Below, in pieces: positions 118-14,968 of a stretch of 15,937 bases of DNA. Source of the stretch: a virus (Duplodnaviria; Heunggongvirae; Uroviricota; Caudoviricetes). Every line of letters starts with the position of its first letter. Within the stretch, counting starts at the first letter, position 1. The stretch lies in IMG/VR virus record IMGVR_UViG_2737471841_000003; one strand, 5' to 3'. The translations under genes were made by a program, and so were the position numbers. The notes beneath the pieces are model-generated. The model was given only the letters and a program-made list of their open reading frames with translations. It was not told the DNA's origin and searched no databases.

Positions 118-2256
118 ATGAGCAACAAAATCGTAGGTGAGATCACAAACGTCATTGGCTTTCAGACTGACAAACGAAGTTATGATCAAGTCAAAGCTGA
201 CATGCGCAAGCTAACCACTACGTGGAACCAGTGCGCTGACAAGATGAAAACGCCAGCACTGGAAAAGATGAAACAGGTAAACCAACAGTTGAGAAAACAG
301 CGTGATCTCCTGAGAGAGATTAAAGCGGCCCAAAGCGGTGTAACGGGTGTTCCCCGTGTCGGTGGAGGTCCGGCAGGCCTGGCAAGACCAAAAACAGGCA
401 ATACCCGCCAGATTTATAACAGGGTGAGGAAACAACAGGCAGCGGAGGCAAGGAGATTAGCCAACGAGGCAAGACGCCAGGGAATATTACAGGCACAAGC
501 TACCAGAGACTCCGCAAGAATTACCTCCACCTTCCAGCCTTCCACAGTCGATAAATACAGAAAACAAATCAGCGACCTGCAAGCCCAGCGGCCCAACATG
601 CCAGCCGCTGAATTTAATGCCCGTATGGGCAAACTTATGATTGACATGAAGAATCATGAAAAATCATTAATTCACTGGGACAAGGTGTTATCCAAAACAT
701 CAAGCACGCTTAAAAGGTTTAACTCTGGACTGAATACAGCGATTAAAGGCCTGGGATTCGCTGCCACGGCGCTGGGTGGGATGATTTATAAATCTTTCCA
801 GGTATCAGCACAGAATAACCGCGCTTATTACGGCTTACTTGCTCAAAATTCAGATGACAAAGCTCTTACCAAAGACCAGATGAATTTTGTGGATCAGATG
901 TCCGATAAATACGGCCTTTCGCTAATGGACGCACAAATGGATTATATGAAGTTCAGAGGGGCGACTAAGGCAACGATGGACGAATCCACAGCAAGGGGAT
1001 TGTTTGAAGCTACTACCATCAAAGGTACAACTGCAGGTACTAACGCACAAGGGATGAGCTTAGCGTTTAAAGCCCTTGAACAGATGAGTTCTAAAGCCTC
1101 GGTTTCCATGGAAGAATTGCGGCAACAGCTCGGCGATCACATTCCGGGTGCGGTTCAGGATTTCTATAAAGCGTGGAAGGAAACCGAAAACAAATCAGAA
1201 GCGACCTATAAGGATTTCGAGAAAGCGGTCAAGGCAGGCAATGTTCAGTTAGAAAAACTTGCTCCCTCCCTGATTAAAATCTGGTCAGTGGCTGAGGGTA
1301 CTGAGGCATTTGCTCAGGCAATGCAACAGCCAGAGAAGGAACTCCAGAGACTGAAAAACACTATGGATAAGGCCGCGATCAGCTTCATGGGTGTAATTGA
1401 CCCCACAGACGGCGTTATTTCAGTATCTGAATCTCTGAGCTACCTGTTCCGTGATATTAAGGCGGCTTTCGGTGAGGCAGATTTTAAAGCAATGGGTGAA
1501 CTGGTAGGTAAATTCCTGTATGAACTGCAATACAGGTTCTGGAGATTCTACTACGACACCGGGGAACCTTTCATGCAGAAGCTGAACGGTTTGTTGGGTG
1601 AGACTACCGATGAAAAGGTAAACACCATTTTTAAAGTGCTAAGTGAGTTGGTAAAACTCAAAGTTGCCATTATGGGGCTATCTGCAGCGACAAATGCAGC
1701 TAAAGCTATCTATACACTTAAATCTGCAATTGAGGCTTTATCGGGCGCATCTACCACGGCAGCGTCCACCGCAGGTAACAGAGGGAACGGCGTAACCGAT
1801 CTACCTTTACCAAAAGGCAACAACCTCAAAAACAGTGCTCTGGTTGAAAATGTCTTACAGAACTATGATGAGGCACAAGCCAAATGGAGGCGGGAACATC
1901 CCGAGGGTAGCGTAGATGTTACGTCTGTAAGAAGCTGGATACCTAAACCGCTTTTAGACTGGTATGACACAGCCGCAGCCACACCGGGCAAATTACCAGA
2001 ATGGATGGGTGGTATCCCGTGGAGGCCAACACCTACCATCAACACCTCACAGGCGCTGCCTATGCCGCAGATGAGTCCTGCATTCATTCAACAGGCTGGC
2101 GTAAACCCTGCTCTGAATATCCACACAGAGGGTGAATTACGAGGCGATATCAACGTTAAGGTCGATATGATGAATCAGGATGTTTATGTGGACCAAAGGA
2201 TTGATGCTAAAATCGATGATTATGAAACGCGCCAACTAAACCTGTTAGCTAGGTAA
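118..2256 (+). CDS. 712-aa virion-type protein, possibly tail tape measure protein
   Basis: ATG at 118 preceded by GAGGG (108-112). Long uninterrupted ORF with a coiled-coil-like, Q/K/R-rich N-terminal third, a hydrophobic segment (GLGFAATALGGMIY) and a segment (SVSMEELRQQLGDHIPGAVQDF) that resembles tape-measure core regions from memory. Followed directly by an intrinsic terminator. The function is inferred, not searched. Confidence 0.45.
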   Translation: MSNKIVGEITNVIGFQTDKRSYDQVKADMRKLTTTWNQCADKMKTPALEKMKQVNQQLRKQRDLLREIKAAQSGVTGVPRVGGGPAGLARPKTGNTRQIYNRVRKQQAAEARRLANEARRQGILQAQATRDSARITSTFQPSTVDKYRKQISDLQAQRPNMPAAEFNARMGKLMIDMKNHEKSLIHWDKVLSKTSSTLKRFNSGLNTAIKGLGFAATALGGMIYKSFQVSAQNNRAYYGLLAQNSDDKALTKDQMNFVDQMSDKYGLSLMDAQMDYMKFRGATKATMDESTARGLFEATTIKGTTAGTNAQGMSLAFKALEQMSSKASVSMEELRQQLGDHIPGAVQDFYKAWKETENKSEATYKDFEKAVKAGNVQLEKLAPSLIKIWSVAEGTEAFAQAMQQPEKELQRLKNTMDKAAISFMGVIDPTDGVISVSESLSYLFRDIKAAFGEADFKAMGELVGKFLYELQYRFWRFYYDTGEPFMQKLNGLLGETTDEKVNTIFKVLSELVKLKVAIMGLSAATNAAKAIYTLKSAIEALSGASTTAASTAGNRGNGVTDLPLPKGNNLKNSALVENVLQNYDEAQAKWRREHPEGSVDVTSVRSWIPKPLLDWYDTAAATPGKLPEWMGGIPWRPTPTINTSQALPMPQMSPAFIQQAGVNPALNIHTEGELRGDINVKVDMMNQDVYVDQRIDAKIDDYETRQLNLLAR

Positions 2257-2261
2257 AAAAT

Positions 2262-2297
2262 AAGGCCCCTGGGATCGCTCCTCGGGGCCTTTTCTTT
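2262..2297. terminator. Bidirectional rho-independent terminator between convergent transcription units
   Basis: Stem AAGGCCCC (2262-2269) pairs with GGGGCCTT (2284-2291), followed by TTTTCTTT on the + strand. On the - strand the same stem is followed by a T-rich run (complement of the A6 tract at 2255-2260). It sits between the stop at 2256 (+) and the stop at 2314 (-). Confidence 0.6.
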
Positions 2298-2313: not shown

Positions 2314-2463
2314 TCAGATGAACTGAGAAAGCTCGCGTACAAGCTGGATTTCCTGCCTTTCTTTCTGTTTTTCCTCTAACCACTTCCTACCCTCAGGTGT
2401 GCTGAGAAACTTGCGTACATGAATACGCTTGTTGTTTCTCTTTATGGCTTTCTGGTTTTTCAT
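2314..2463 (-). CDS. 49-aa highly basic small protein (MKNQKAIKRNNKRIHVRKFLSTPEGRKWLEEKQKERQEIQLVRELSQFI)
   Basis: Internal ATG at 2463-2461 of the track ORF 2314..2568 has a strong SD (AGGAGGT, complement of 2467-2473) at 3-nt spacing. The longer N-terminal extension in the track would overlap the promoter at 2540-2568. About 14 of 49 residues are K/R. Confidence 0.45.
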   Translation of the reverse strand: MKNQKAIKRNNKRIHVRKFLSTPEGRKWLEEKQKERQEIQLVRELSQFI

Positions 2464-2539
2464 GGTGTACCTCCTATTGCACTGGCTACGCCAGGTAGCC
2501 ACAGCTACCCCGCAGGGTGTTACCGCCGTTAACGTCCAT

Positions 2540-2568
2540 ATTATAGCCAATATCTGGCGTTTAGACAA
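2540..2568 (-). promoter_or_regulatory. sigma70-like promoter for the 49-aa gene (-35 TTGTCT, 17-bp spacer, -10 TATAAT)
   Basis: Reverse complement of 2540-2568 reads TTGTCT-N17-TATAAT. The implied start site is about 70 nt upstream of the ATG at 2463. Confidence 0.35.
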
Positions 2569-2900
2569 TAGCAGTCTTTTTGATGCCGTGATGGTGGTAT
2601 ATAAGCCTGTGGCATCAATTAATAGGTTTTTCTGATTGTCTTGCAGATCAGCTTTATCAGGTATCTGTTTATGTTCCGGTACGATGAGACCGTGCGGGCA
2701 TCTCTTAGTTTTGGCTTATAACTTATGTGCCTGGTAAGAGAGCAGAACCACCATCAATCGCCTGTTTATCGCCTTGGTTAGGGCAGGGCCGCATCAAGCC
2801 CAGTGATCTGTAAGGTACTCCACACCATATACGCTTCTTTTCTCGTAGAGGTCGCGTTAACCTCTGGGGTGTGTTTCCATTCGACAGGATAGCATGATCA

Positions 2901-3728
2901 TTATGGGTATACTACTCCTGCACTTTCCATTGCACTATCTACATAGGCTTTAGTTCTGGGAGACATGGGGGCATTACCCTTAGCTGCGTCACCCACATTC
3001 GACTCTTTAGACTTATCGTTCACAATGCCCTTATTCTTGGGTGGAGATTTCTTCGGATCAGAGAAAATTGTGGCTTCCACCATTTTAGTTTTGAAGGTCC
3101 TGAACTCCTGGAGAGTGATATCAAAGAGAATGGCCTCACCTTCGGTGTTCTTTTTGCTGGCACGCATCGAGGTAATGATAAAATTCTCATAGACATCTTC
3201 TTCTGTGACCAACGAGATTAATTGGCGTCTATCTATACATTCATTAACCGCCGCCAATGCCGCCGCCATCCTTCCACTTTCGCGGGGGGCTTCTGGATCT
3301 GTGTTACGGTCAATGTAGTTTGCCTTCCGGTACATCTGGGGAGAGGTAGTCACCCTGGCGGTGAAAGATATTTTGGTATCTTTGATCACGGCATGATCTG
3401 AAATAGTCACACCATCTTCTACAGCAAAATCTGTTTTCTCTATATCTCTGGTGACTTCATAATCGGTAATGCAGTCGAAGATAAGGCAAATGTTATCGGT
3501 GTAGTTAAATTCCTGTAAGCGATAATCCTGACCATGACCATTCAGGCCGGAAATTATCATGGTGAATTGTGCATCAGCCTGAGCTTTTTCTGCATTTAAG
3601 AATTTACCTTCATGCTCAACGCCCAATTCATCCTGGCTATAAATCCTTTCCCCAGTCTTCCAGTCCCTGCGACCTTCTGAACCATAGGAAACATCTTCGT
3701 TAATAACTACTTTATTGCTATTCATCAT
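2901..3728 (-). CDS. 275-aa acidic hypothetical protein; no domain recognised (could be a minor virion protein or an accessory gene)
   Basis: ATGATG start at 3728-3723 preceded by AAGGGGA. It begins 15 nt after the stop of the 53-aa HTH ORF, so the two are probably co-transcribed. TAA stop at 2903-2901. I see no Walker, HNH or PD-(D/E)xK motif. Confidence 0.7.
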   Translation of the reverse strand: MMNSNKVVINEDVSYGSEGRRDWKTGERIYSQDELGVEHEGKFLNAEKAQADAQFTMIISGLNGHGQDYRLQEFNYTDNICLIFDCITDYEVTRDIEKTDFAVEDGVTISDHAVIKDTKISFTARVTTSPQMYRKANYIDRNTDPEAPRESGRMAAALAAVNECIDRRQLISLVTEEDVYENFIITSMRASKKNTEGEAILFDITLQEFRTFKTKMVEATIFSDPKKSPPKNKGIVNDKSKESNVGDAAKGNAPMSPRTKAYVDSAMESAGVVYP

Positions 3729-3743
3729 TTTCCCCTTGCCTTG

Positions 3744-3905
3744 TCAGATAATGCCATAGTGTTTCAATGTTTCAATCAACCCATTACGTTTCAGGAAAGT
3801 TCGCACAGCCTCACGCGTAACTCCGGCTTTTCTGGCTATTTCCGAAAGGTTGATAAAATCAGTGTCTGTGTTTTCAATAACAACACGTTTGTTAATCAAT
3901 TTCAT
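3744..3905 (-). CDS. 53-aa helix-turn-helix DNA-binding protein (MKLINKRVVIENTDTDFINLSEIARKAGVTREAVRTFLKRNGLIETLKHYGII); absent from the ORF track (below its length cutoff)
   Basis: Translated codon by codon from the reverse strand: ATG at 3905-3903, SD AAGGAG (complement of 3914-3919) at 8-nt spacing, TGA at 3746-3744. The segment LSEIARKAGVTREAVRTFL is a typical HTH (excisionase/MerR-like or Nu1-like). Confidence 0.5.
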   Translation of the reverse strand: MKLINKRVVIENTDTDFINLSEIARKAGVTREAVRTFLKRNGLIETLKHYGII

Positions 3906-3940: not shown

Positions 3941-3978
3941 AATAAAAAAGGGAGGGAGGTTGTTAGCCTCTCCTCCCT
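3941..3978 (-). terminator. Intrinsic terminator or stabilising hairpin just downstream of the major capsid gene
   Basis: On the - strand: GGGAGGAGAGG, loop CTAACAA, CCTCCCTCCC, then CTTTTTTATT. It begins about 20 nt after the capsid stop at 3996. Phages commonly place a strong hairpin after the capsid gene. Confidence 0.5.
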
Positions 3979-3995: not shown

Positions 3996-5024
3996 TTATG
4001 CCGCTTCGGTTAATTTCAGTTTAAAAATGAAATCTGGCCTACTATTGAGGTACGCGGTATGGGATTCACAGAAGATTTTACGCTGGGTGTTAGTCTGTTC
4101 TAACCAGTAAATTTCCCGTGCAGGTGCACCGCTCATTGCATAGCGTAAATTACGGGTTGCAGGTCCCACAATTTCACTCATGCAAGGCAGGAAAGTATTC
4201 TTGCGAACTGCCGGAACAGCGTAAGCATGACCTTCTTTCATGAATGAATCGTCACAGCTGATAATAGTGATAGCAATGCCATCTACCTGGAATACAGAAT
4301 AACCCGGCAGATGTTCACCATCAAATACCATGCTGGATTTAACAGTACCATTACCGAACATAATAGCGCGGCGAATGTCTTTATCATCGTAACGCAGGCG
4401 ATCATAAGTTGAGCTATCTACGAAGAGATAAACCCCACCAAATGAGTGAACTAAACCGCCCATTTGTTTTTTGACCAGTTTTACAATTCGTTCAAGCTCA
4501 CGGATGAGATCGCCACCCAGGTTTAACTCATCTTCGGACTGTTTAAACTTGCCACCCAGTTCCTCGACAATATCGATATCCCCACCTTTGAAATGAATCA
4601 CGTTATCAAAGAGAGCGCGCTGCATAGCTTTTTCTCTTGCAATTTCAAGGCGTTGTTTCATGCTCAACAGGTGTTCACCCGTCACATCGTCCAAGGTTTT
4701 CTCACGATTGGTGCCTGGTTTGCGGTGACCCTGGAAAGCGCTGGCGCTGATCTGAGATTCCAGTGCATAAGCAGGAACACGCAGCATTAAAGTTTGTGCT
4801 GTACCTGTTACGATGCTGCCATAATCACCCAGATCATAATCGCTTACAACTGGGGCAGCTGATTGGGTTGCTGCAATAACGTTATCGAACACGAAGGAGG
4901 TTGTACTGGTGTAAATTTTTTCATTAAACAAGCCCAGAGAAGTGATCAGCTGGTTTTCTAATGTTGGTTCTAGCATCACACATTCTGTGACATCTTTATA
5001 ATCGAATAATTGAAAGTCTGCCAT
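3996..5024 (-). CDS. Major capsid protein, lambda gpE family (342 aa)
   Basis: Size matches lambda E (341 aa). Recalled local similarity to lambda gpE: KNTFLP vs KNFLP, SGAPAREIYW vs GDPAREFTM, and a similar central hydrophobic block. ATG at 5024. It sits directly downstream of a small decoration-like gene, as in lambda D-E. Confidence 0.7.
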   Translation of the reverse strand: MADFQLFDYKDVTECVMLEPTLENQLITSLGLFNEKIYTSTTSFVFDNVIAATQSAAPVVSDYDLGDYGSIVTGTAQTLMLRVPAYALESQISASAFQGHRKPGTNREKTLDDVTGEHLLSMKQRLEIAREKAMQRALFDNVIHFKGGDIDIVEELGGKFKQSEDELNLGGDLIRELERIVKLVKKQMGGLVHSFGGVYLFVDSSTYDRLRYDDKDIRRAIMFGNGTVKSSMVFDGEHLPGYSVFQVDGIAITIISCDDSFMKEGHAYAVPAVRKNTFLPCMSEIVGPATRNLRYAMSGAPAREIYWLEQTNTQRKIFCESHTAYLNSRPDFIFKLKLTEAA

Positions 5025-5036
5025 TCCATCCCCCTA

Positions 5037-5360
5037 TTAAAGTGCTAATTTGACATGTTCGTTTAACAGGTGGGGAATAGCTTCCGGAGGATTAATTCCG
5101 AAAGAATTTAATACCACACCGATCCCGTGAACAATAACTAATTTGTCGCCTTTTTTAGCTGGTTCCAATACCACAAATAAAGCAGGCATCTCTTCTTCGT
5201 CAGCGTCGAATTTTGCCCCTTCTGCGGTAATAACATCGCCAGGGAATAAATCCTCAGTTAATGCCGTTTTCAGTTCCAGAGCTTTTTGTTCAAACTCGGG
5301 GTCCATGGAATAGGCGACCACATCTGCACGTGTTTTACGCGGCTTATCAGAAAATAACAT
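5037..5360 (-). CDS. Putative head decoration protein (107 aa), lambda gpD-like by position and size
   Basis: ATG at 5360 with GAGGT SD. Its stop is 12 nt upstream of the capsid gene start. 107 aa vs 110 aa for lambda D. Sequence similarity to gpD was not confidently recognised; the call is positional. Confidence 0.45.
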   Translation of the reverse strand: MLFSDKPRKTRADVVAYSMDPEFEQKALELKTALTEDLFPGDVITAEGAKFDADEEEMPALFVVLEPAKKGDKLVIVHGIGVVLNSFGINPPEAIPHLLNEHVKLAL

Positions 5361-5460: not shown

Positions 5461-5913
5461 TAATGGACCAGGTGCATAATCCAGAGCACGAAGATTATTC
5501 TCTGGTCATTCGTCTGTCGAGGTGATTTAAATGTGAAGTGAATCAGGCATTACTGCCTCAATCCATATAATAAAACCTCCCCCTAGCCCAGAGAGAGGCC
5601 TTATTATTTACTAGGATATATGAATGACTGATTTCAGTCTGGCAGATTCGCTAATAGCTCACCGCCTGGCACTTATTATCGCCTTCATTAGATCACCACA
5701 AATAATGTCGGCTATGGGAGAATGTAACCCGCTCCCAGTTGTTCACAGTACAACCAGACTTTTTACTGGAGAAAGTAATATCCACTCGTATAAATATTAC
5801 CTTCTTTAAAGGCCCTCGCTACGGTGGAAAGAAGAGGTAGCACAGAACAACCAGCAAAGACCTTTAAAGAAGTACGCCCAGCATCAAGGGGAAAATGATG
5901 AAAAAGCTCTGAG

Positions 5914-5942
5914 CTTCCGGGCGTTGACAAGTACAGGAGAAC
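5914..5942 (+). promoter_or_regulatory. Near-consensus sigma70 promoter (TTGACA, 17-bp spacer, TATTAT; TG immediately upstream of the -10)
   Basis: TTGACA at 5914-5919, TATTAT at 5937-5942, TG at 5935-5936. Confidence 0.45.
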
Positions 5943-6018
5943 ACTGTATTATCCAATAATCGGTGAGATGTAGGTGAGATAACTCGAAAGGTGTAACCAT
6001 GAAAGTATCTACATCATA

Positions 6019-6038
6019 GTATTATGATAACATAATAC
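6019..6038. promoter_or_regulatory. Inverted repeat (GTATTATG ATAA CATAATAC), candidate operator or RNA hairpin in the leader
   Basis: 8-bp arms separated by 4 bp, downstream of the 5914 promoter and followed 16 nt later by a T7 run (6055-6061). Confidence 0.3.
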
Positions 6039-6095
6039 TTGCCGTTTGTCAATCCTTTTTTCAAAGAAATTTAAAAAATTTTTCTCTCCGCCTCT

Positions 6096-6142: not shown

Positions 6143-6182
6143 GTGATACGGTTCACCACAAATGGTAAGTGGAGGGTGCGAT

Positions 6183-7013
6183 ATGAAAGAGAGAAAACAG
6201 GCTTTAGCTAAAACAACAGAGCAGTTCATCGCTGAGGCAAGGAAAGTGCATGGTGATAAGTACGATTATTCGAAAGTTGAATACGTGAATATGCGCACTG
6301 AGGTTTGTATCATTTGCCCAATACATGGGGAGTTCACACAAAGACCAGAGAACCATCTTCGCGGTAACAGAGGAAAGGGGTGTGGTTGCCCTATTTGTAA
6401 ACCTTGGAGAAAACGCCTGACACGAGAAGAGTTCGAAAGGAGGGTAAAAGAGGTACACGGTGATAACCTGGATGTTTCACAGTTCGATTATAAAAACGTT
6501 CACACAGAGGGTATTGTTAAGTGCAACAGGTGCGGCATGACGTTCTCGATACAGGCACAAGCGATTATCCTTAGAAATTCTGATGGTAGTCTTCTAGGCG
6601 GTTGCCCTGTGTGTGACCATCTACACAGAGACGCGGAATATGTTTATTTGGCGCTGGATGATCCACACTTTCCGACGAGATTTAAGATCGGGGTAACAAG
6701 CAACCCACAGGACAGATTGATAACTTTGAAGTGTAGAACACCTTTCAGGGTGTTTATGAAATGTTGTTTCAAAGTAGGAAAAGTGAAGGCGCGGAGGCTG
6801 GAGTACTTCCTGCACAACTTCTACAACTTCTGCAATTGTGGTTATGAATCAAGAAAGGACTTTCAGGGTGCAACAGAGTGGTTTTATTACCTGCAAAGTA
6901 AAGTAGGGGTGAAGAGGGTGCTCAAGATGTTAGTAAAACTGGTAAACGCCAGGAGCTACAACCGCCACTACATAAAGCATAAAAAGCCAACGTTTAAACG
7001 CACTTTGTTTTAA
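6183..7013 (+). CDS. Homing-endonuclease-like protein: two N-terminal Zn-ribbon repeats plus a C-terminal T5orf172 (GIY-YIG-like) domain
   Basis: Start moved to ATG 6183 (GGAGGG SD at 6171-6176); the track start at 6162 lacks an SD. Two tandem repeats of HGDKYDYSKVEY...C.ICP.HGEF.Q.P..HL.G.GC..C, then YVYLALDDPHFPTRFKIGVTSNPQDRL...EYFLH...ATEWFYY, which matches the T5orf172 pattern as I remember it. Confidence 0.65.
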   Translation: MKERKQALAKTTEQFIAEARKVHGDKYDYSKVEYVNMRTEVCIICPIHGEFTQRPENHLRGNRGKGCGCPICKPWRKRLTREEFERRVKEVHGDNLDVSQFDYKNVHTEGIVKCNRCGMTFSIQAQAIILRNSDGSLLGGCPVCDHLHRDAEYVYLALDDPHFPTRFKIGVTSNPQDRLITLKCRTPFRVFMKCCFKVGKVKARRLEYFLHNFYNFCNCGYESRKDFQGATEWFYYLQSKVGVKRVLKMLVKLVNARSYNRHYIKHKKPTFKRTLF

Positions 7014-7364: not shown

Positions 7365-7916
7365 ATGAAAACTATCAAAACTATCGCCGCTGTGGTCCTG
7401 GCAATGTTTGTGGGCAATGCTAATGCCGCCCTGGTGATCACAGACCAAGACATTGAAGACCACATGGAGACAATGGAGGTTTACTACCAGGCTGAGGATA
7501 TTGATTGTGAGATCTGGAGCAAGATGTTCACGAAAGGGGTAATTGAAGGTAACGACAAGTTCAGGCACGGTATCCGTGTTCACAAAGACCTCACAATTGT
7601 TGCCATGAAAGCTAAATCGGAGTTCTACAACAAATACGCAGGGGAGGTTGTCAAATCTGGCGCAAGTAAAGGATACAGCAAGGAGAGAGTAGATCAGATT
7701 AGAGATGTTTACATCGGTGCTTACATCGGTGCGGCCGAGATGAAATCTCGCGTAAACAGCAAGTTCGGCAAAGCCGCTGATCTTAACTCTGTAGCTAAAA
7801 AGAGAGCAGAAGCCGATCATTGGTTCAATTTCTGTGTGAAAGTGAAAGAAGAATATCCGGTCGTATTGTTCAACGAGTGGTTAGCTATAGCACAGCTGGC
7901 AGAAGATGATTTTTAA
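7365..7916 (+). CDS. Secreted (periplasmic) protein with Sec signal peptide, 183 aa
   Basis: Start moved to ATG 7365 (GAGGTG SD at 7353-7358). N-terminus MKTIKTIAAVVLAMFVGNANA/AL has n-, h- and c-regions with a predicted cleavage after ANA. There is no Cys at +1, so it is not a lipoprotein. The track start at 7275 lacks an SD. Confidence 0.6.
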   Translation: MKTIKTIAAVVLAMFVGNANAALVITDQDIEDHMETMEVYYQAEDIDCEIWSKMFTKGVIEGNDKFRHGIRVHKDLTIVAMKAKSEFYNKYAGEVVKSGASKGYSKERVDQIRDVYIGAYIGAAEMKSRVNSKFGKAADLNSVAKKRAEADHWFNFCVKVKEEYPVVLFNEWLAIAQLAEDDF

Positions 7917-11030: not shown

Positions 11031-12008
11031 ATGACTACAGAAGTGATGATCCAGATTTTCGAATCTGATTTAAATAATGATGGTAACTTAGTCCCGGTTG
11101 TTAACGCCCGTGAGTTTTACGAAGCGCTTGGGATGCGAAAAGATTATGGAAATTGGATCAGGTGGCATCTTCGGAAATTTGAAAAAAATCGGGACTTTAT
11201 TACTTTTATCGATAAGTCGGGAGAACATCCGCGTCATAACTATTTTATCACTTTGGACACTGCAAAGCACATATGCAGGGTGAGCCAACGCCAGGAAGGT
11301 GAGCAGTTGCTACAGTATTTAATTAAAGTTGAAAAAAGATACCGTTTAGTACTGGACCCACAACCACAGATTCCTGTTTACACACAGTCACAGATTCCTG
11401 TTTACACACAGTCACAGATTCCTGTTTACACACAGACGGAACCTGAACCGTTGCCAGGAACACCGGAACATTTTGCCCGTGCATTTACGGAGGCTTACCA
11501 ACAGATATACGGGGCAACAGATCAGCAGCCAGTCATTGAGCACAATACGGAACCTGTGGTTCCTTGTTGGGGAGCTGGGTCTAATCAGAGCCTCGAGGTC
11601 CAGGATGTGCAGGAAGTACGACCGCCAGCACCTGTGCTGGGGTATTACAATCCTTGCCCGGACAACAAAATCAACATGAAAGGCTTAAAAGAATACCTGA
11701 GCAATGAACGCCTGATCAAGTACCTCATTAAAAAATTCAACATTGAAAATGAGATTTATGATTATGGTTACATAAATGTGAAAGGGAAAGCTGAGTCGGA
11801 GATTGTGTACGATAAACGTAAAACGCTGGCGATCTTACATGCCGCTTACGCTTTGAGTACTAGAGTAAACGCCACACAGAGAGAGTTTATGGGGATAGTA
11901 TTCACGATGTACAGGGTGTTAAGAGACACACATTATGATAAGGACATGTACGATACAGCTTACACTCTTCTTGAAGAGGATATAAACAAATTGTATAAAA
12001 TTGATTGA
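11031..12008 (+). CDS. Antirepressor-like protein with N-terminal AntA-type domain (325 aa)
   Basis: ATG at 11031 with a G-rich SD. The N-terminus (VVNAREFYEALGMRKDYGNWIRWHLRKFEKNRDFITF...YFITLDTAKHI) matches the AntA/AntB antirepressor N-terminal pattern as I remember it. Contains a triplicated QIPVYTQS repeat. Confidence 0.65.
   Translation: MTTEVMIQIFESDLNNDGNLVPVVNAREFYEALGMRKDYGNWIRWHLRKFEKNRDFITFIDKSGEHPRHNYFITLDTAKHICRVSQRQEGEQLLQYLIKVEKRYRLVLDPQPQIPVYTQSQIPVYTQSQIPVYTQTEPEPLPGTPEHFARAFTEAYQQIYGATDQQPVIEHNTEPVVPCWGAGSNQSLEVQDVQEVRPPAPVLGYYNPCPDNKINMKGLKEYLSNERLIKYLIKKFNIENEIYDYGYINVKGKAESEIVYDKRKTLAILHAAYALSTRVNATQREFMGIVFTMYRVLRDTHYDKDMYDTAYTLLEEDINKLYKID
11367..11438 (+). repeat. 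Three tandem 24-bp direct repeats (CAGATTCCTGTTTACACACAGTCA) inside the antirepressor-like gene
   Basis: Units at 11367-11390, 11391-11414 and 11415-11438; the third differs in its last bases. In frame, encoding QIPVYTQS x3. Confidence 0.9.
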
Positions 12009-12362: not shown

Positions 12363-12371
12363 CACACACTA

Positions 12372-12408
12372 GGGACAAAATGTCCTACCTACCCGGGACA
12401 AAATGTCC
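12372..12408. promoter_or_regulatory. Two copies of a 14-bp palindromic operator-like site, GGGACAAAATGTCC, 23 bp centre to centre
   Basis: Exact copies at 12372-12385 and 12395-12408. Each is a dyad (GGACA-N3-TGTCC). Confidence 0.5.
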
Positions 12409-12409
12409 A

Positions 12410-12419
12410 CCCCCCCCCC
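12410..12419. repeat. Homopolymeric C10 tract
   Basis: Ten consecutive C at 12410-12419, directly after the second operator copy. Confidence 0.9.
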
Positions 12420-12449
12420 GGCAATATGTGATTCCCGGAAGACACATGT

Positions 12450-12486
12450 TTGTACAAATTGTAGTCACTGATTGTACAGATTGTAG
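12450..12486. repeat. Two direct repeats TTGTACA(A/G)ATTGTAG spaced 22 bp
   Basis: 12450-12464 and 12472-12486. Each has a TGTACA palindromic core. Confidence 0.6.
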
Positions 12487-12490
12487 CACT

Positions 12491-12573
12491 ATACCGGTTT
12501 TCCGATAGAGCTATACCGGATTTCCGGTAGAGGTATACCGCTTTTCCGGTATAGGTATACCGGATTTCCGGTA
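12491..12573. repeat. Iteron array: four 17-bp dyad-symmetric sites (ATACCGG-N-TTTCCGGTA) at exactly 22-bp spacing; putative replication origin or partition/regulator binding array
   Basis: Sites at 12491-12507, 12513-12529, 12535-12551 and 12557-12573. Arms TACCGGA and TCCGGTA are reverse complements. Followed by an AT-rich stretch (12574-12622), the same layout as the lambda origin (four dyad iterons plus an AT-rich region). Confidence 0.6.
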
Positions 12574-12622
12574 ACTATTAGATCAATCTATTACATCAAG
12601 AAAAAAGATCACTTATTATATT

Positions 12623-12645
12623 AAGGGCCTTGCCCTTTTTGTTGT
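12623..12645 (+). terminator. Terminator-like hairpin (AAGGGC, loop CTT, GCCCTT, then TTTGTTG)
   Basis: 6-bp GC-rich stem with a 3-nt loop, then a T-run, at the end of the AT-rich region. It would terminate read-through from the 12087 gene across the iterons. Confidence 0.35.
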
Positions 12646-13845
12646 GGGATTGATTGGTGGGATTGATCTTACTGATAGTATAATACTCCACCAATCAACC
12701 CTAAGTTGTGGGAGAGTACGGAGCAGACTGCGACTACAGAGCAGGCTGAGAAGTACTCAATGGGTGTAAGGGATTAAGGGACCCACACACATTTCCACAC
12801 ACAGAGTAAAGCCAGAGGCTTTATGAAGTGTAAGAGTAATGCCTAAAGAGTCGAAGCACACTTTAGGCTATATTGTGTGGGAGGTATCTGTACATAGTAC
12901 AGAGTACTCCCCATTATGTGGGGGCAATCCTGCCCGTAAGGGCAGCTCATGTGATTCGCAGCCGTAAGCTGAACTGCGACGAAGAAGGCTGCAAAGGTTC
13001 TCGGCCCGGTTACAATTACGCAACAATTTTATAATCTATCGTTAACCTATACCACTATCACAATTTCTATAGTTGAGTCCTACTATCCCCTACACCATAA
13101 AATCAATTTTAAGCCACACTCAGCCTACGGCTTCACGGTAAAACGTGTTTTAACCCACATAATGGCCCCTGTAGTGAGCTAAATGGTATACACCGCTATA
13201 ATTGGGTTACTTATGAGATAACCTCGTTAGAATCGATTCTAGAGCGTTTTAGAGCTTGAAATCCATCCTGCAAACTGCAAGATGATGATTCTATCGGGGA
13301 AGAATTTTTTTCCTTCCCGTAAGTCGTACCGTAGAGCAGATTTGCTTTACGAGCTTTCTCACACCTCAGGCCTCTGGCCTTCATGGAGTATCGGAGATAC
13401 GACTCACCGCATATACTCTGTTTTCAGTGCTACCCTGATCGCATCCGACCCTTTTCAGAGGCACTTTTAACCGCATTCTGGCACGCTACAACAGCAAGAA
13501 ATAGGCTGATTCTACTGATTTTACCTTACAATACAGGTACATAGCAGAAGGGCAGGAATATACTGTGAGAATGGTTGCTAGACCGGGCCTTCTTCTCTCT
13601 GTGTGTGCATTCTGAAACCGTTATGTAGTCGAGTATATAACGACTGGTCAGACCAGTGCAGGGCTGAAAATGATGATCGGTCACCACAATTATGGGCAAA
13701 TTACTGTACATTCATACAGTAGTTATACATAAAGAATATGCATCGATTGCTCTTTAGGCACAGATGTTATAATGTAACAATTAATTTAGTTTACCTCGGT
13801 AATCACTGTGTGGACATGTCACGCAACTAAACTAAATCCGAAGAG

Positions 13846-13854
13846 TTATCCACA
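13846..13854 (+). promoter_or_regulatory. Consensus DnaA box TTATCCACA
   Basis: Exact 9-mer match to the R-type DnaA box, single copy. Nearby are an 8-bp palindrome GACATGTC (13812-13819) and a 10-bp inverted repeat, ATTTAGTTTA (13783-13792) with TAAACTAAAT (13827-13836). Confidence 0.3.
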
Positions 13855-14687
13855 GATTGGGGGTAAATCATCAACATAGTCTGTAGCCTCTGACAGAGAG
13901 CAAAAAGAAAGGCCTTTTATGTGATCAATATCACGTTTCTGGGGTAGTTCTGGAGGCTTAGGTGCGGGGAAGTAGTGCGTACTGACACCAGAGGCCGCAT
14001 AAAACAAGGGGATTTAACATAATGGATCTTGTATACACCACACCTCACCACGTTGAAATCTGATCTTACTTTGAGGCTATCTGCCAACAGAATCCGCGTA
14101 CATGCACCATAACCTGTATGTGGGATGCAATAATAAAGGCCCTGGCGGCCCACAGGCCGCATGAATACTGGGCTTGTCATAGATATGGGCCTGTATCGCT
14201 ATGTAGATGCGGGATGACCTGTAAGGGTGTGGCAGGTGGCAGGGGCTGGAGGGCACGGTACAGCACAGCTAATGGGTGAGGCCCCAGATATTTGAGAATC
14301 ACTCTCACCTGAGAATAATTATCAGTAACTCCTGCCTAGTACCACCCCTGTAGGTAAGGTTGATCATTGCCCACATTGCTGGTATACTTTATCTGTGGGA
14401 AAGTAACGCCGTTACTTCCGCGAACGCTGTGCGTGATGTGTGGGAGAATGTGCCTGCGTAATAAAAAAATTGAAAATTACTCATCTGTCAACATTTCAAT
14501 GACGTATGTCAATCATTTATGCTATGTGTTTACTTTATAATCAATCACTTACGAATTTAATGAAATAAATGCATTTAAATAGGGTGAAACTCAAATCTAA
14601 CCCCTGAAACTGTGTTGATAAAGGGGCGTGAAGCCCGGCGTAGGTAACTCGTTACCCGCCAGTGTTATTGATAATTCTCATTTACGT

Positions 14688-14716
14688 TTGACAATGCAAT
14701 CCCAATGGTGTATAAT
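14688..14716 (+). promoter_or_regulatory. Perfect consensus sigma70 promoter (TTGACA, 17-bp spacer, TATAAT)
   Basis: TTGACA at 14688-14693 and TATAAT at 14711-14716, in an AT-rich upstream context. Confidence 0.6.
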
Positions 14717-14750
14717 AGACTATAAGGGGTAAGATAGAATCTTTACTCAA

Positions 14751-14796
14751 TTTCTCGATCAAAGGTATTGACAAATGAGAGTAAAGGTGTTATACT
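14751..14796 (+). promoter_or_regulatory. Second tandem near-consensus promoter (13-bp box TTTCTCGATCAAA, then TTGACA, 17-bp spacer, TATACT)
   Basis: Box at 14751-14763, -35 at 14768-14773, -10 at 14791-14796. It lies 80 bp downstream of the 14688 promoter. Confidence 0.6.
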
Positions 14797-14885
14797 TATC
14801 TATAACAGCAAAACTCTACTTTAGAGCCGCTCCATGAGGAGCAAAGCTCCGAAGTGTGATCATAGTCGGTAAATCCCTTACTTAC

Positions 14886-14918
14886 CGGGGGCACTTCTCC
14901 AGCCCCCTCTCTTTTTAA
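14886..14918 (+). terminator. Intrinsic terminator in the leader (GGGGGC, 9-nt loop, GCCCCC, then TCTCTTTTTAA)
   Basis: Stem 14887-14892 pairs with 14902-14907, followed by a T-run at 14908-14916. It is about 110 nt downstream of the predicted start site and about 50 nt upstream of the 14969 start. Confidence 0.5.
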
Positions 14919-14968
14919 CGGTATGGTAAGAAAACATTCTTTATAAGTGATAAAAGAGGTAGTTAATC

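Follow-up and report, generated by a model that had tools for sequence, protein, structure and literature searches.

The 15,937-nucleotide (nt) stretch of viral DNA analysed here (IMG/VR record IMGVR_UViG_2737471841_000003; hereafter the window, in whose positions all coordinates are given) probably represents a circular, plasmid-like phage satellite of Escherichia coli, which would place its own tape measure protein and tail tube initiator in tails built by a helper phage. At its centre is a unit of three genes that is read on the minus strand behind a major capsid protein gene and encodes a 53-amino acid (aa) helix-turn-helix (HTH) protein, a 275-aa acidic protein and a 49-aa basic protein. 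The 275-aa protein is, with near certainty, a tail tube initiator related to those of rV5-type (Vequintavirinae) myophages, and the most fitting description of the element around its gene is that of a satellite with an incomplete tail pathway. The genes of the unit and its structural neighbours are the following.

118..2256, plus strand: 712-aa tape measure protein, convergent with the 275-aa unit (Pfam TMP_3, E 2e-12; phrog_5255, E 3.5e-44)
2314..2463, minus strand: 49-aa basic protein (isoelectric point (pI) 10.7; 14 of 49 residues lysine or arginine, 28.6%; AGGAGG Shine-Dalgarno)
2901..3728, minus strand: 275-aa Dit_like protein, near-certain tail tube initiator (pI 5.0)
3744..3905, minus strand: 53-aa basic HTH protein (pI 10.0; AAGGAG Shine-Dalgarno 8 nt upstream)
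3996..5024, minus strand: 342-aa major capsid protein of the lambda gpE / rV5 type (Pfam Phage_cap_E, E 1.7e-7; phrog_29, E 3e-11)
5037..5360, minus strand: 107-aa acidic protein, probable head decoration homologue, in the same pre-capsid position as rV5 ORF61

The tube initiator and its structural partners

A preliminary description of the unit rightly called the 275-aa protein acidic and recognised no domain in it, a view that profile searches overturn: the protein matches the Pfam family Dit_like (PF21821) at E 2.9e-25 (89.3 bits against a cut-off of 24.2, covering profile positions 1–125 of 127) and phrog_5197 at E 2.5e-77. A tblastn search with it returned 375 phage records, the best being Vequintavirus (rV5-type) genes at 48–49% identity that are annotated as 'tail tube initiator protein' or 'structural protein', and the counterpart in phage MaxTheCat is 47% identical. 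The tube initiators of Vequintavirinae and other myophages (phiTE 9CUY chains K/L, Phi92 gp135, Pam3 gp17) belong to the same Pfam family and are its best fold matches; in searches of PDB sequences the corresponding hits are 9cuy_K of phiTE (4.2e-35), Phi92_gp135 (6e-14) and Pam3 gp17 (2.4e-3), with homology to the phiTE protein spanning residues 45–252. Foldseek points the same way, as the top matches of a poor structural model with a predicted local distance difference test score (pLDDT) of 49.7 are tube-initiator chains from phiTE (1.9e-13), Pam3, Bas63, XM1, Pa193 and E217. In the phiTE baseplate the tube initiator sits on the hub as a ring of six subunits that initiates polymerisation of the tube around the tape measure protein, and it combines the tube protein's fold with long N- and C-terminal extensions that run through the baseplate (PMC11972413). 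By these homologies the place of the 275-aa protein is in the inner baseplate and tail tube and not in the head or neck, so that the earlier alternative of a minor head or neck protein was right as to a structural role and wrong as to its location. No match to the protein was found by PADLOC.

Considered by itself, the 275-aa gene adds an unremarkable new member to a known structural family. Its product shares a conserved core with the family (approximately residues 45–245) and differs from the phage tube initiators in its distinct, satellite-specific N-terminal 44 residues and in a C-terminus about 30 residues shorter than the phage versions. The last ~30 residues (window 2901–2990) come in three or more unrelated versions among the related elements (compared in L006–L008, L016 and L017), and these versions do not strictly co-vary with tape measure type. 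The setting of the gene is also non-canonical. In rV5-type phages the tube-initiator gene lies directly 3' of the tape measure gene and is followed by genes for a Pam3_gp18-type plug and the hub; in the element it follows the capsid and HTH genes on the opposite strand to the tape measure gene, on which it converges, and no plug or hub gene, nor any other baseplate gene, was found. The 712-aa tape measure protein, which is 23–26% identical to those of rV5-type phages and 23% identical to that of MaxTheCat, is presumed to be the functional partner of the tube initiator.

Kinship with rV5 extends to the head genes. The capsid protein gives weak collinear BLASTP matches to the rV5 major head protein ORF60 (E 7e-5 and 3e-4), and the 107-aa acidic protein matches the rV5 'head stabilization/decoration protein' ORF61 weakly (E 4e-4). 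The layout of rV5 matches as well, with a decoration gene, a major head gene, a terminator and a small ORF in succession. The capsid protein is otherwise nearly an orphan, with 30 representatives at E<=1e-3 among 1.84 billion, and tblastn of this protein against phages gave nothing. Purifying selection is strong on all genes tested, with a ratio of non-synonymous to synonymous polymorphism (pN/pS) of ~0.05–0.15 for the capsid, decoration and tape measure genes. Among the open reading frames (ORFs) scanned in Pfam and PHROGs, none encodes a terminase, portal, sheath, tube, hub, fibre or integrase. The virion genes of the element are limited to rV5-type genes of divergent sequence for the decoration, capsid and tape measure proteins and the tube initiator, with the addition in some relatives of a homologue of the neck protein Ne1 (below). 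Most virion genes are missing, and the structural genes that are kept resemble those of an rV5-type helper, as befits a satellite.

A circular element with two lineages

The window corresponds in full to contig JUDJ01000049.1 (15,937 bp) from an NCBI assembly, and an independent Logan contig (L003) is a circular permutation of it that joins the window end to the window start. The sole difference between the two is an indel of one 24-nt repeat unit in the tandem repeat of the anti-repressor gene. The window ends fall within a 72-aa acidic ORF that lies upstream of the tape measure gene and has no informative match, and in the related contig L014 the termini overlap by 30 nt. A homologue search with the 275-aa protein found ~22 close relatives (73–96% identity) and then a jump to rV5-type proteins at 45–52%. 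Several of the relatives lie on contigs of 13–16 kb, and their sources are E. coli isolate drafts and gut metagenomes. Comparison of twelve related loci separated lineage A, to which the window belongs, from lineage B (L011, L012, L014, L016 and L017). All loci with enough sequence share one gene order: small acidic (decoration), capsid, HTH, tube initiator, a variable slot and the convergent tape measure gene. The protein identities between lineages are very uneven.

Decoration-like protein, lineage A against B: 29%
Capsid protein, lineage A against B: 31%
HTH protein, lineage A against B: 23–28%
Tape measure protein, lineage A against B: 46–53%
Tube initiator, lineage A against B: 80–87%

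At the nucleotide level, similarity between the lineages begins at the 275-aa coding region, right after the HTH gene. It reaches 81% both in the tube-initiator gene and in the 200 nt that end the tape measure gene, and is otherwise confined to the middle of the tape measure gene (64%, weaker), one early gene and two short motifs. As judged from these alignments, the tube initiator and the C-terminus of the tape measure protein are the most constrained or the most recently shared part of the element, and their pairing would fit parts that dock into one kind of helper baseplate. Within the family, the tape measure protein of L008 is only 30% identical to that of the window. Lineage B carries a 151–152-aa homologue of the neck protein Ne1 directly 3' of the tube initiator (L014 7692–8150, L016 6173–6628 and L017 5518–5976), which is 39–40% identical to the rV5-type neck protein (L014, L017; E 1e-24) and stands where lineage A has a conserved non-coding element of ~300 nt and the 49-aa gene.

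The comparison between lineages also bears on the HTH gene. As previously described, a 53-aa ORF with an HTH and a Shine-Dalgarno sequence follows the capsid-gene terminator (ORF 3905..3744, AAGGAG, hairpin 3977..3944), and its stop lies 15 nt from the 275-aa ORF; it had been called unannotated, and all three ORFs of the unit are in fact called as genes in public assemblies. The AlphaFold2 (AF2) model of the protein has three helices (residues 20–27, 31–40 and 43–49; pLDDT 68). Its matches are all generic (sigma-70 region 4, Fis-like): those in the Pfam and PHROG scans are weak, Foldseek with the model returned generic HTH folds at E>0.5, none of them significant, profile searches of PDB sequences were uninformative, and a word-based homologue search found only two near-identical clusters. 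Among lineage A relatives, at ~0.5 synonymous differences per synonymous site (pS), the gene has a pN/pS of 0.01–0.11, tighter than the capsid gene, and it is a real gene under strong purifying selection. Its lineage B counterpart occupies the same slot and encodes 71–79 aa (hhalign E 4.5e-5, probability 69%). In rV5 the equivalent slot holds the 74-aa ORF59, which is unrelated to the HTH protein; this bears out the earlier remark that an HTH gene is unexpected at the post-capsid position. Its divergence between lineages matches that of the head genes, unlike that of the tube initiator, and for this reason the gene appears to belong genetically to the head module and not with the 275-aa gene.

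This discordance speaks against the module that the preliminary description had envisaged, namely that the HTH and 275-aa genes form a regulator-plus-effector cassette, toxin/antitoxin-like or of a defence or anti-defence kind, inserted after the capsid gene. The tight 15-nt spacing and the small HTH are compatible with such a cassette, as are a weak PADLOC match of the HTH protein to mad1 (1e-5) and sub-threshold Pfam matches to antitoxin-type HTH families. These HTH matches are generic and below every curated cut-off, the 275-aa protein, as a tube initiator, has a virion homologue of solved structure and finds no match in PADLOC, and the two genes differ in evolutionary history (23–28% against 80–87% identity between lineages). 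That they are not co-inherited argues against a cassette, which we regard as highly improbable. It had been proposed that detection of the 275-aa protein in virions with clear structural homologues, together with lack of conservation or translation of the 53-aa ORF, would speak against the module; structural homologues in virions exist, by homology, and the 53-aa ORF proved to be strongly conserved.

The HTH protein is most likely a transcription regulator of late genes, either of the element or of the helper, by analogy to the delta protein of satellite P4. The sid-delta-psu operon of P4 is a capsid-determining operon of a satellite in which a small transcription factor acts on late promoters, and it is the closest parallel to the presence of an HTH gene amid virion genes. 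The two proteins are unrelated in sequence, and delta is a zinc-finger activator, not an HTH protein. To our knowledge P4 encodes no capsid, tape measure or baseplate protein, and the element is not P4-like.

A link to phage DNA comes from a 60-kb metagenome contig (ERZ27242512 k141_228590; L008 14090–18299), in which a member of the family runs on into rV5-like phage DNA. The joined DNA encodes homologues of rV5 ORF76, ORF75 and ORF74 (64–66% aa identity, same order) together with tRNA-Arg(tct) and tRNA-Tyr(gta), as in rV5, and the homology break lies inside the large non-coding region of the element, at approximately window 12803–12906. The join may represent integration, a co-integrate or an assembly chimera; whichever the cause, it indicates that an element of this kind and an rV5-like phage were present in the same sample. 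Further database scans gave no additional satellites: no relatives were found when GTDB genomes were scanned with the tube-initiator alignment, and a scan of JGI metagenomes found rV5-like phage contigs only. Eight long rV5-like contigs from the metagenome scan (40–148 kb) carry tube-initiator copies that are 42–52% identical to that of the element, none of high identity. Neither the unit nor the whole window had a megablast match among INPHARED phages or complete E. coli genomes, and in PLSDB the only match was a 100-nt fragment of the anti-repressor gene.

The 60-kb contig is an argument for regarding the element as an island, mobile or variable, within rV5-like phage genomes, or as a defective mini-phage, with the 14–16 kb contigs being assembly fragments. 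All structural genes are of rV5 type, and relatives carry resolvase/invertase-size serine recombinases and homing-endonuclease-like genes. An island is difficult to reconcile with two assemblies of the same sequence that are circular permutations with different break points, and with the origin of several 13–16 kb contigs in E. coli isolate assemblies whose locus tags are of chromosomal scale. The element moreover duplicates the capsid, tape measure and tube-initiator genes that an rV5-type phage already has, and none of the eight long rV5-like contigs contains a high-identity copy. We consider an island or mini-phage origin of the contigs unlikely.

The following further features were identified in the element.

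6162–7013: T5orf172/DUF723 (homing-endonuclease-like) gene at the start of the early operon
7365–7916: 183-aa protein with an N-terminal signal-peptide-like segment (MKTIKTIAAVVLAMFVGNANA), without database match; the only predicted exported protein of the element
11365–11435: 24-nt tandem repeat in three copies, encoding QIPVYTQS, inside the AntA-type anti-repressor gene; copy number varies between the two assemblies
12363–14968: 2.6-kb stretch without convincing ORF; relatives have a comparable gene-free stretch
12372–12417: two GGGACAAAATGTCC palindromes, within the gene-free stretch
12483–12573: four 22-bp iterons, within the gene-free stretch and apart from the lambda-O-like initiator gene
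14690–14718 and 14769–14797: examples of several strong promoter-like sites within the gene-free stretch
14832–14858: 27-nt motif with the hairpin GGAGC-AAA-GCTCC, upstream of the operon of the 79-aa, initiator and tape measure genes

The other genes encode the anti-repressor, an HTH_23 protein, a weak lambda-O-like initiator and several orphans, and no tRNA gene was found in the window. In several relatives the T5orf172/DUF723 gene is replaced by a serine recombinase of 188–193 aa, the size of a resolvase or invertase (L008 4423–4989, L013 599–1165), and L017 (512–2344) carries both. The 27-nt motif is 100% identical across the two lineages and occurs twice in L014 (728–754 and 948–974). An Rfam search of the 2.6-kb gene-free stretch gave no match. 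In favour of a plasmid-like state one can cite the circular permutation of contigs from E. coli assemblies, the iterons and the weak O-like initiator; to be set against these are the lack of any copy in complete E. coli genomes and PLSDB and the one phage-joined contig.

Conserved non-coding elements, the 49-aa gene and terminators

Two non-coding elements of the head and tail region are candidate new regulatory RNAs. They are listed here with the promoters and terminators that surround them.

2255..2297 (hairpin 2262–2291), both strands: bidirectional intrinsic terminator, AAGGCCCC...GGGGCCTT, with A-run and T-run flanks
2540..2568, minus strand: sigma-70-like promoter TTGTCT-17-TATAAT of the 49-aa gene, 10/12 match
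2600..2895, minus strand: ~300-nt conserved non-coding element directly 3' of the 275-aa stop, candidate structured RNA or cis-acting site
3721..3738, minus strand: translation initiation region of the 275-aa gene (Shine-Dalgarno and ATGATG), perfect complement of leader 5885–5902
3944..3977, minus strand: intrinsic terminator or attenuator hairpin GGGAGGAGAGG-loop-CCUCCCUCCC with U-run, between the capsid and HTH genes
5566..6052, minus strand: promoter-to-terminator non-coding leader of ~450 nt, upstream of the head genes
5596..5576, minus strand: terminator-like hairpin of the leader
6052..6024, minus strand: leader promoter TTGACA-17-TATCAT, 11/12 match with extended TG

The ~300-nt element is 93–98% identical in relatives whose neighbouring genes have a pS of 0.2–0.5 and contains no ORF longer than 16 aa. 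Covariation is consistent with a structured RNA: compensatory changes occur at three pairs, two small hairpins carry double changes from G-C to A-U, every one-sided change in this small set of six sequences is G.U-compatible on the sense strand, and insertions in the relative L015 map to predicted loops or linkers. The minimum free energy of the element is ordinary on either strand (z −0.17 and −0.46), so that thermodynamics alone gives no support for structure. The element has no Rfam match and is absent from lineage B. A distant blastn search of the 440-nt gap against phages found nothing, and Rfam searches with the gathering threshold on the window and an E-value threshold on both non-coding regions gave nothing credible. 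The gap of 330 bp given in the preliminary description corresponds to the distance from the 275-aa stop to the −35 of the downstream promoter (~332 nt) and not to that up to the 49-aa ATG, which is 437 nt, and it is in this gap that the conserved element lies.

The leader is ~95–99% conserved in lineage A from promoter to terminator and variable beyond. Within it, positions 5885–5902 form with the 275-aa start region (3721–3738) an inverted repeat of 18 nt with 100% complementarity (I5). The pairing is kept at the same relative place in four further distinct relatives, where changes give G.U pairs. By our own calculation the expectation for such a distant 18-mer pair is ~0.004; matches in shuffled sequences stem from local palindromes. 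The duplex of the leader with the element's own tube-initiator start is predicted at −29.7 kcal/mol, compared with −5 to −16 for helper-type starts, and the leader 18-mer has no match to the start regions of rV5-type tube-initiator genes. Translation of the tube initiator may consequently be controlled through pairing of its start region with the conserved leader RNA, as the preserved complementarity suggests. In local blast against the rV5-type loci examined, no match was obtained for the leader, for the ~300-nt element or for the 2.6-kb non-coding region. A 16-nt motif common to the leader and the ~300-nt element (D3) was dropped, being at chance level by estimate, and a mini-ORF encoding MMKKL on the plus strand at 5885 was rejected because the peptide is not conserved in L015.

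Constraint at the nucleotide level on the ~300-nt element could also be read as that of a pac site, with the HTH protein acting as a small-terminase-like packaging-specificity factor for the large terminase of the helper. The HTH gene co-varies with the head module, no terminase was found in the element, and the lineage B counterpart of the HTH protein has sub-threshold matches to P22 gp3 (2e-3) and to a small-terminase PHROG (0.011). All of these matches remain sub-threshold, and with 53 aa the protein is not long enough to include the oligomerisation domain that known small terminases have. Lineage B retains the HTH counterpart yet is without the ~300-nt element, and the G.U-compatible substitutions indicate an RNA rather than a DNA site. 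A packaging role for the HTH protein accordingly ranks second, as less likely than transcriptional regulation, and a packaging system composed of the two appears quite unlikely.

The 49-aa gene, correctly characterised earlier as encoding a protein with about 30% lysine and arginine and as having its own sigma70-like promoter, is a separately transcribed accessory gene of one lineage. The ORF is kept in L007, L008, L013 and L015 with a pN/pS of 0.05–0.30, and purifying selection among relatives makes both it and the HTH ORF more than chance ORFs. Its product has no match in Pfam, PHROGs, PADLOC or NCBIfam, and the gene is specific to lineage A; in lineage B the slot is taken by the 152-aa Ne1 neck homologue. 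The promoter is kept in relatives, in which the −35 is invariant, the −10 is TATAAT or TAAAAT and the downstream 5' untranslated region is replaced. A 46-nt block that includes the −35 (2560–2605) is 85% conserved in lineage B in inverted orientation, just 3' of the neck-protein homologue (L014 8181–8223, L017 6047–6089). One possibility is that the 49-aa protein serves as a small inhibitor or adaptor of helper assembly, by analogy with the PLE protein Rta discussed below.

Transcription of the unit appears to be bounded by terminators. The bidirectional terminator, whose presence the preliminary description had reported, is common to the convergent tape measure and 49-aa genes, folds well on both strands (z −4.3 on the minus and −2.8 on the plus strand) and is kept in relatives. 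The post-capsid hairpin (−24.5 kcal/mol, z −2.6) begins 18 nt 3' of the capsid ORF, and together with its T-run it is kept in both lineages despite flanking genes at ~30% aa identity. In rV5 a rho-independent terminator is annotated at the equivalent place, after the major head gene, and the post-capsid terminator of the element probably lowers the expression of downstream genes in the same way.

Proposed satellite lifestyle and its precedents

We propose that the structural genes of the element derive from rV5-type myophages and that, when an rV5-like helper infects, the element supplies its own tape measure protein and tube initiator. These proteins would nucleate tails that otherwise consist of helper sheath, tube, hub and fibres, and the chimeric tails would be joined to capsids made with the element's capsid and decoration proteins. 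The proposal is modelled on the 'chimeric tail' shown experimentally for the Vibrio satellite PLE, which is the closest precedent. PLEs are integrated through a large serine recombinase and use the capsid protein of their helper with the scaffold TcaP, and PLE CapR is a domesticated T5orf172 protein. Genes of the T5orf172 and anti-repressor types are a further feature that the element has in common with PLE, as is a small accessory protein without homologues (Rta in PLE, the 49-aa protein in the element).

The parallel is closest in the tail genes. PLEs encode a tail assembly chaperone (TAC), a tape measure protein (TMP) and the protein BhuB, which are ~20%, 20% and 41% identical to those of the helper ICP1, and PLE particles contain the PLE versions of tail proteins and exclude those of ICP1 (bioRxiv 10.1101/2025.01.29.635557). 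In ICP1, BhuB (Gp78) matches Pfam Dit_like (PF21821) at 1.2e-17 and is encoded directly 3' of the tape measure gene, and we take it to be the counterpart of the 275-aa protein. Alignment of the tube-initiator family profile to ICP1 Gp78 with hhalign was not significant, and the link rests on common Pfam membership. The element thus resembles PLE in having its own tape measure gene and a Dit_like gene, putatively for an inner-baseplate protein, and in the identity of these proteins to helper-type counterparts (~20% for the tape measure protein, 41–47% for BhuB or the tube initiator). It differs from PLE in being circular, with no integrase found, in having its own capsid and decoration genes and in that no chaperone was recognised, the 72-aa acidic ORF next to the tape measure gene having no informative match.

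A satellite with its own major capsid protein gene has precedents in the cf-PICIs and in the EPIPs of mycobacteria. cf-PICIs also encode a portal, small terminase, head-tail connectors, scaffold/protease and integrase. EPIPs have genes for a major capsid protein and a tape measure protein of their own, as well as for a small terminase, head-tail connectors, scaffold/protease and integrase, and tape measure genes are described as otherwise unknown in satellites (PMC12822802). In the element, unlike in both of these groups, the portal, protease/scaffold, connectors, small terminase and integrase were not found, and the lack of a portal, protease, small terminase and integrase sets it apart from cf-PICIs. 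A literature search for satellites of rV5 or Vequintavirinae found nothing relevant.

The structural genes could alternatively serve interference, with the copies of the tube initiator, tape measure protein and capsid protein acting as dominant-negative decoys that poison the assembly of infecting rV5-type phages and so shield the population of host cells, with little or no transfer of the element. Satellites commonly inhibit their helpers, and Rta of PLE11 blocks tail assembly through the tape measure protein of the helper. The copies in the element are divergent (23–47% identity to rV5), no portal or terminase was found, and among the products of the element are an anti-repressor and a T5orf172-type protein. 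Capsid, decoration and tape measure proteins need not be full-length and strongly constrained (pN/pS ~0.05–0.15) to act as decoys, and lineage B adds a further virion part, Ne1; in PLE, moreover, interference coexists with incorporation. Interference as the main function of these genes seems to us improbable.

Several observations weigh against the satellite proposal and are considered here together. The element has a capsid gene in the absence of portal, protease, scaffold and terminase genes, which makes its capsid-building role uncertain, and we know of no characterised satellite with this combination. The phage copies found share only 42–54% identity with its tube initiator, the genes for the tape measure protein and the tube initiator are read from different strands, at odds with canonical tail-gene order, and no tail assembly chaperone was recognised among its genes. 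The AF2 model of the 275-aa protein is of low confidence (pLDDT 49.7), and none of the searches narrowed the function of the HTH protein. A scan of IMG/VR with the capsid protein found no relatives, the plasmid-like lifestyle rests on draft contigs given the lack of matches in complete E. coli genomes, PLSDB and INPHARED, and the join to phage DNA, seen in one metagenome contig, could be an assembly chimera. The sequence data establish gene identities, homologies, selection, circular permutation and synteny in the family, and from these we infer helper dependence, incorporation into tails and the roles of the HTH protein, the 49-aa protein and the RNAs. We hold the satellite and chimeric-tail proposal to be probable and not firmer than that.

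A more specific hypothesis is that the element represents a new family of integrase-less, plasmid-like satellites of virulent rV5-type myophages, which would build chimeric virions from helper parts and their own parts that nucleate structures and set their size (capsid and decoration proteins, tape measure protein, tube initiator and, in one lineage, a neck protein), control the tube initiator through two RNAs and use the HTH protein as a switch. We advance this tentatively, as possible rather than probable. Satellite-encoded tail parts have only recently been reported, in PLE (in a 2025 preprint) and in the mycobacterial EPIPs. If the proposal is correct, the element would be a second independent case of chimeric-tail piracy, and it would show that nucleators and rulers are the parts of a virion that a parasite needs to have of its own. 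A tractable E. coli system for the study of tail nucleation would also be gained. rV5-type phages are common in E. coli and are used in phage therapy and biocontrol, and their efficacy in strains that carry such an element could be affected.

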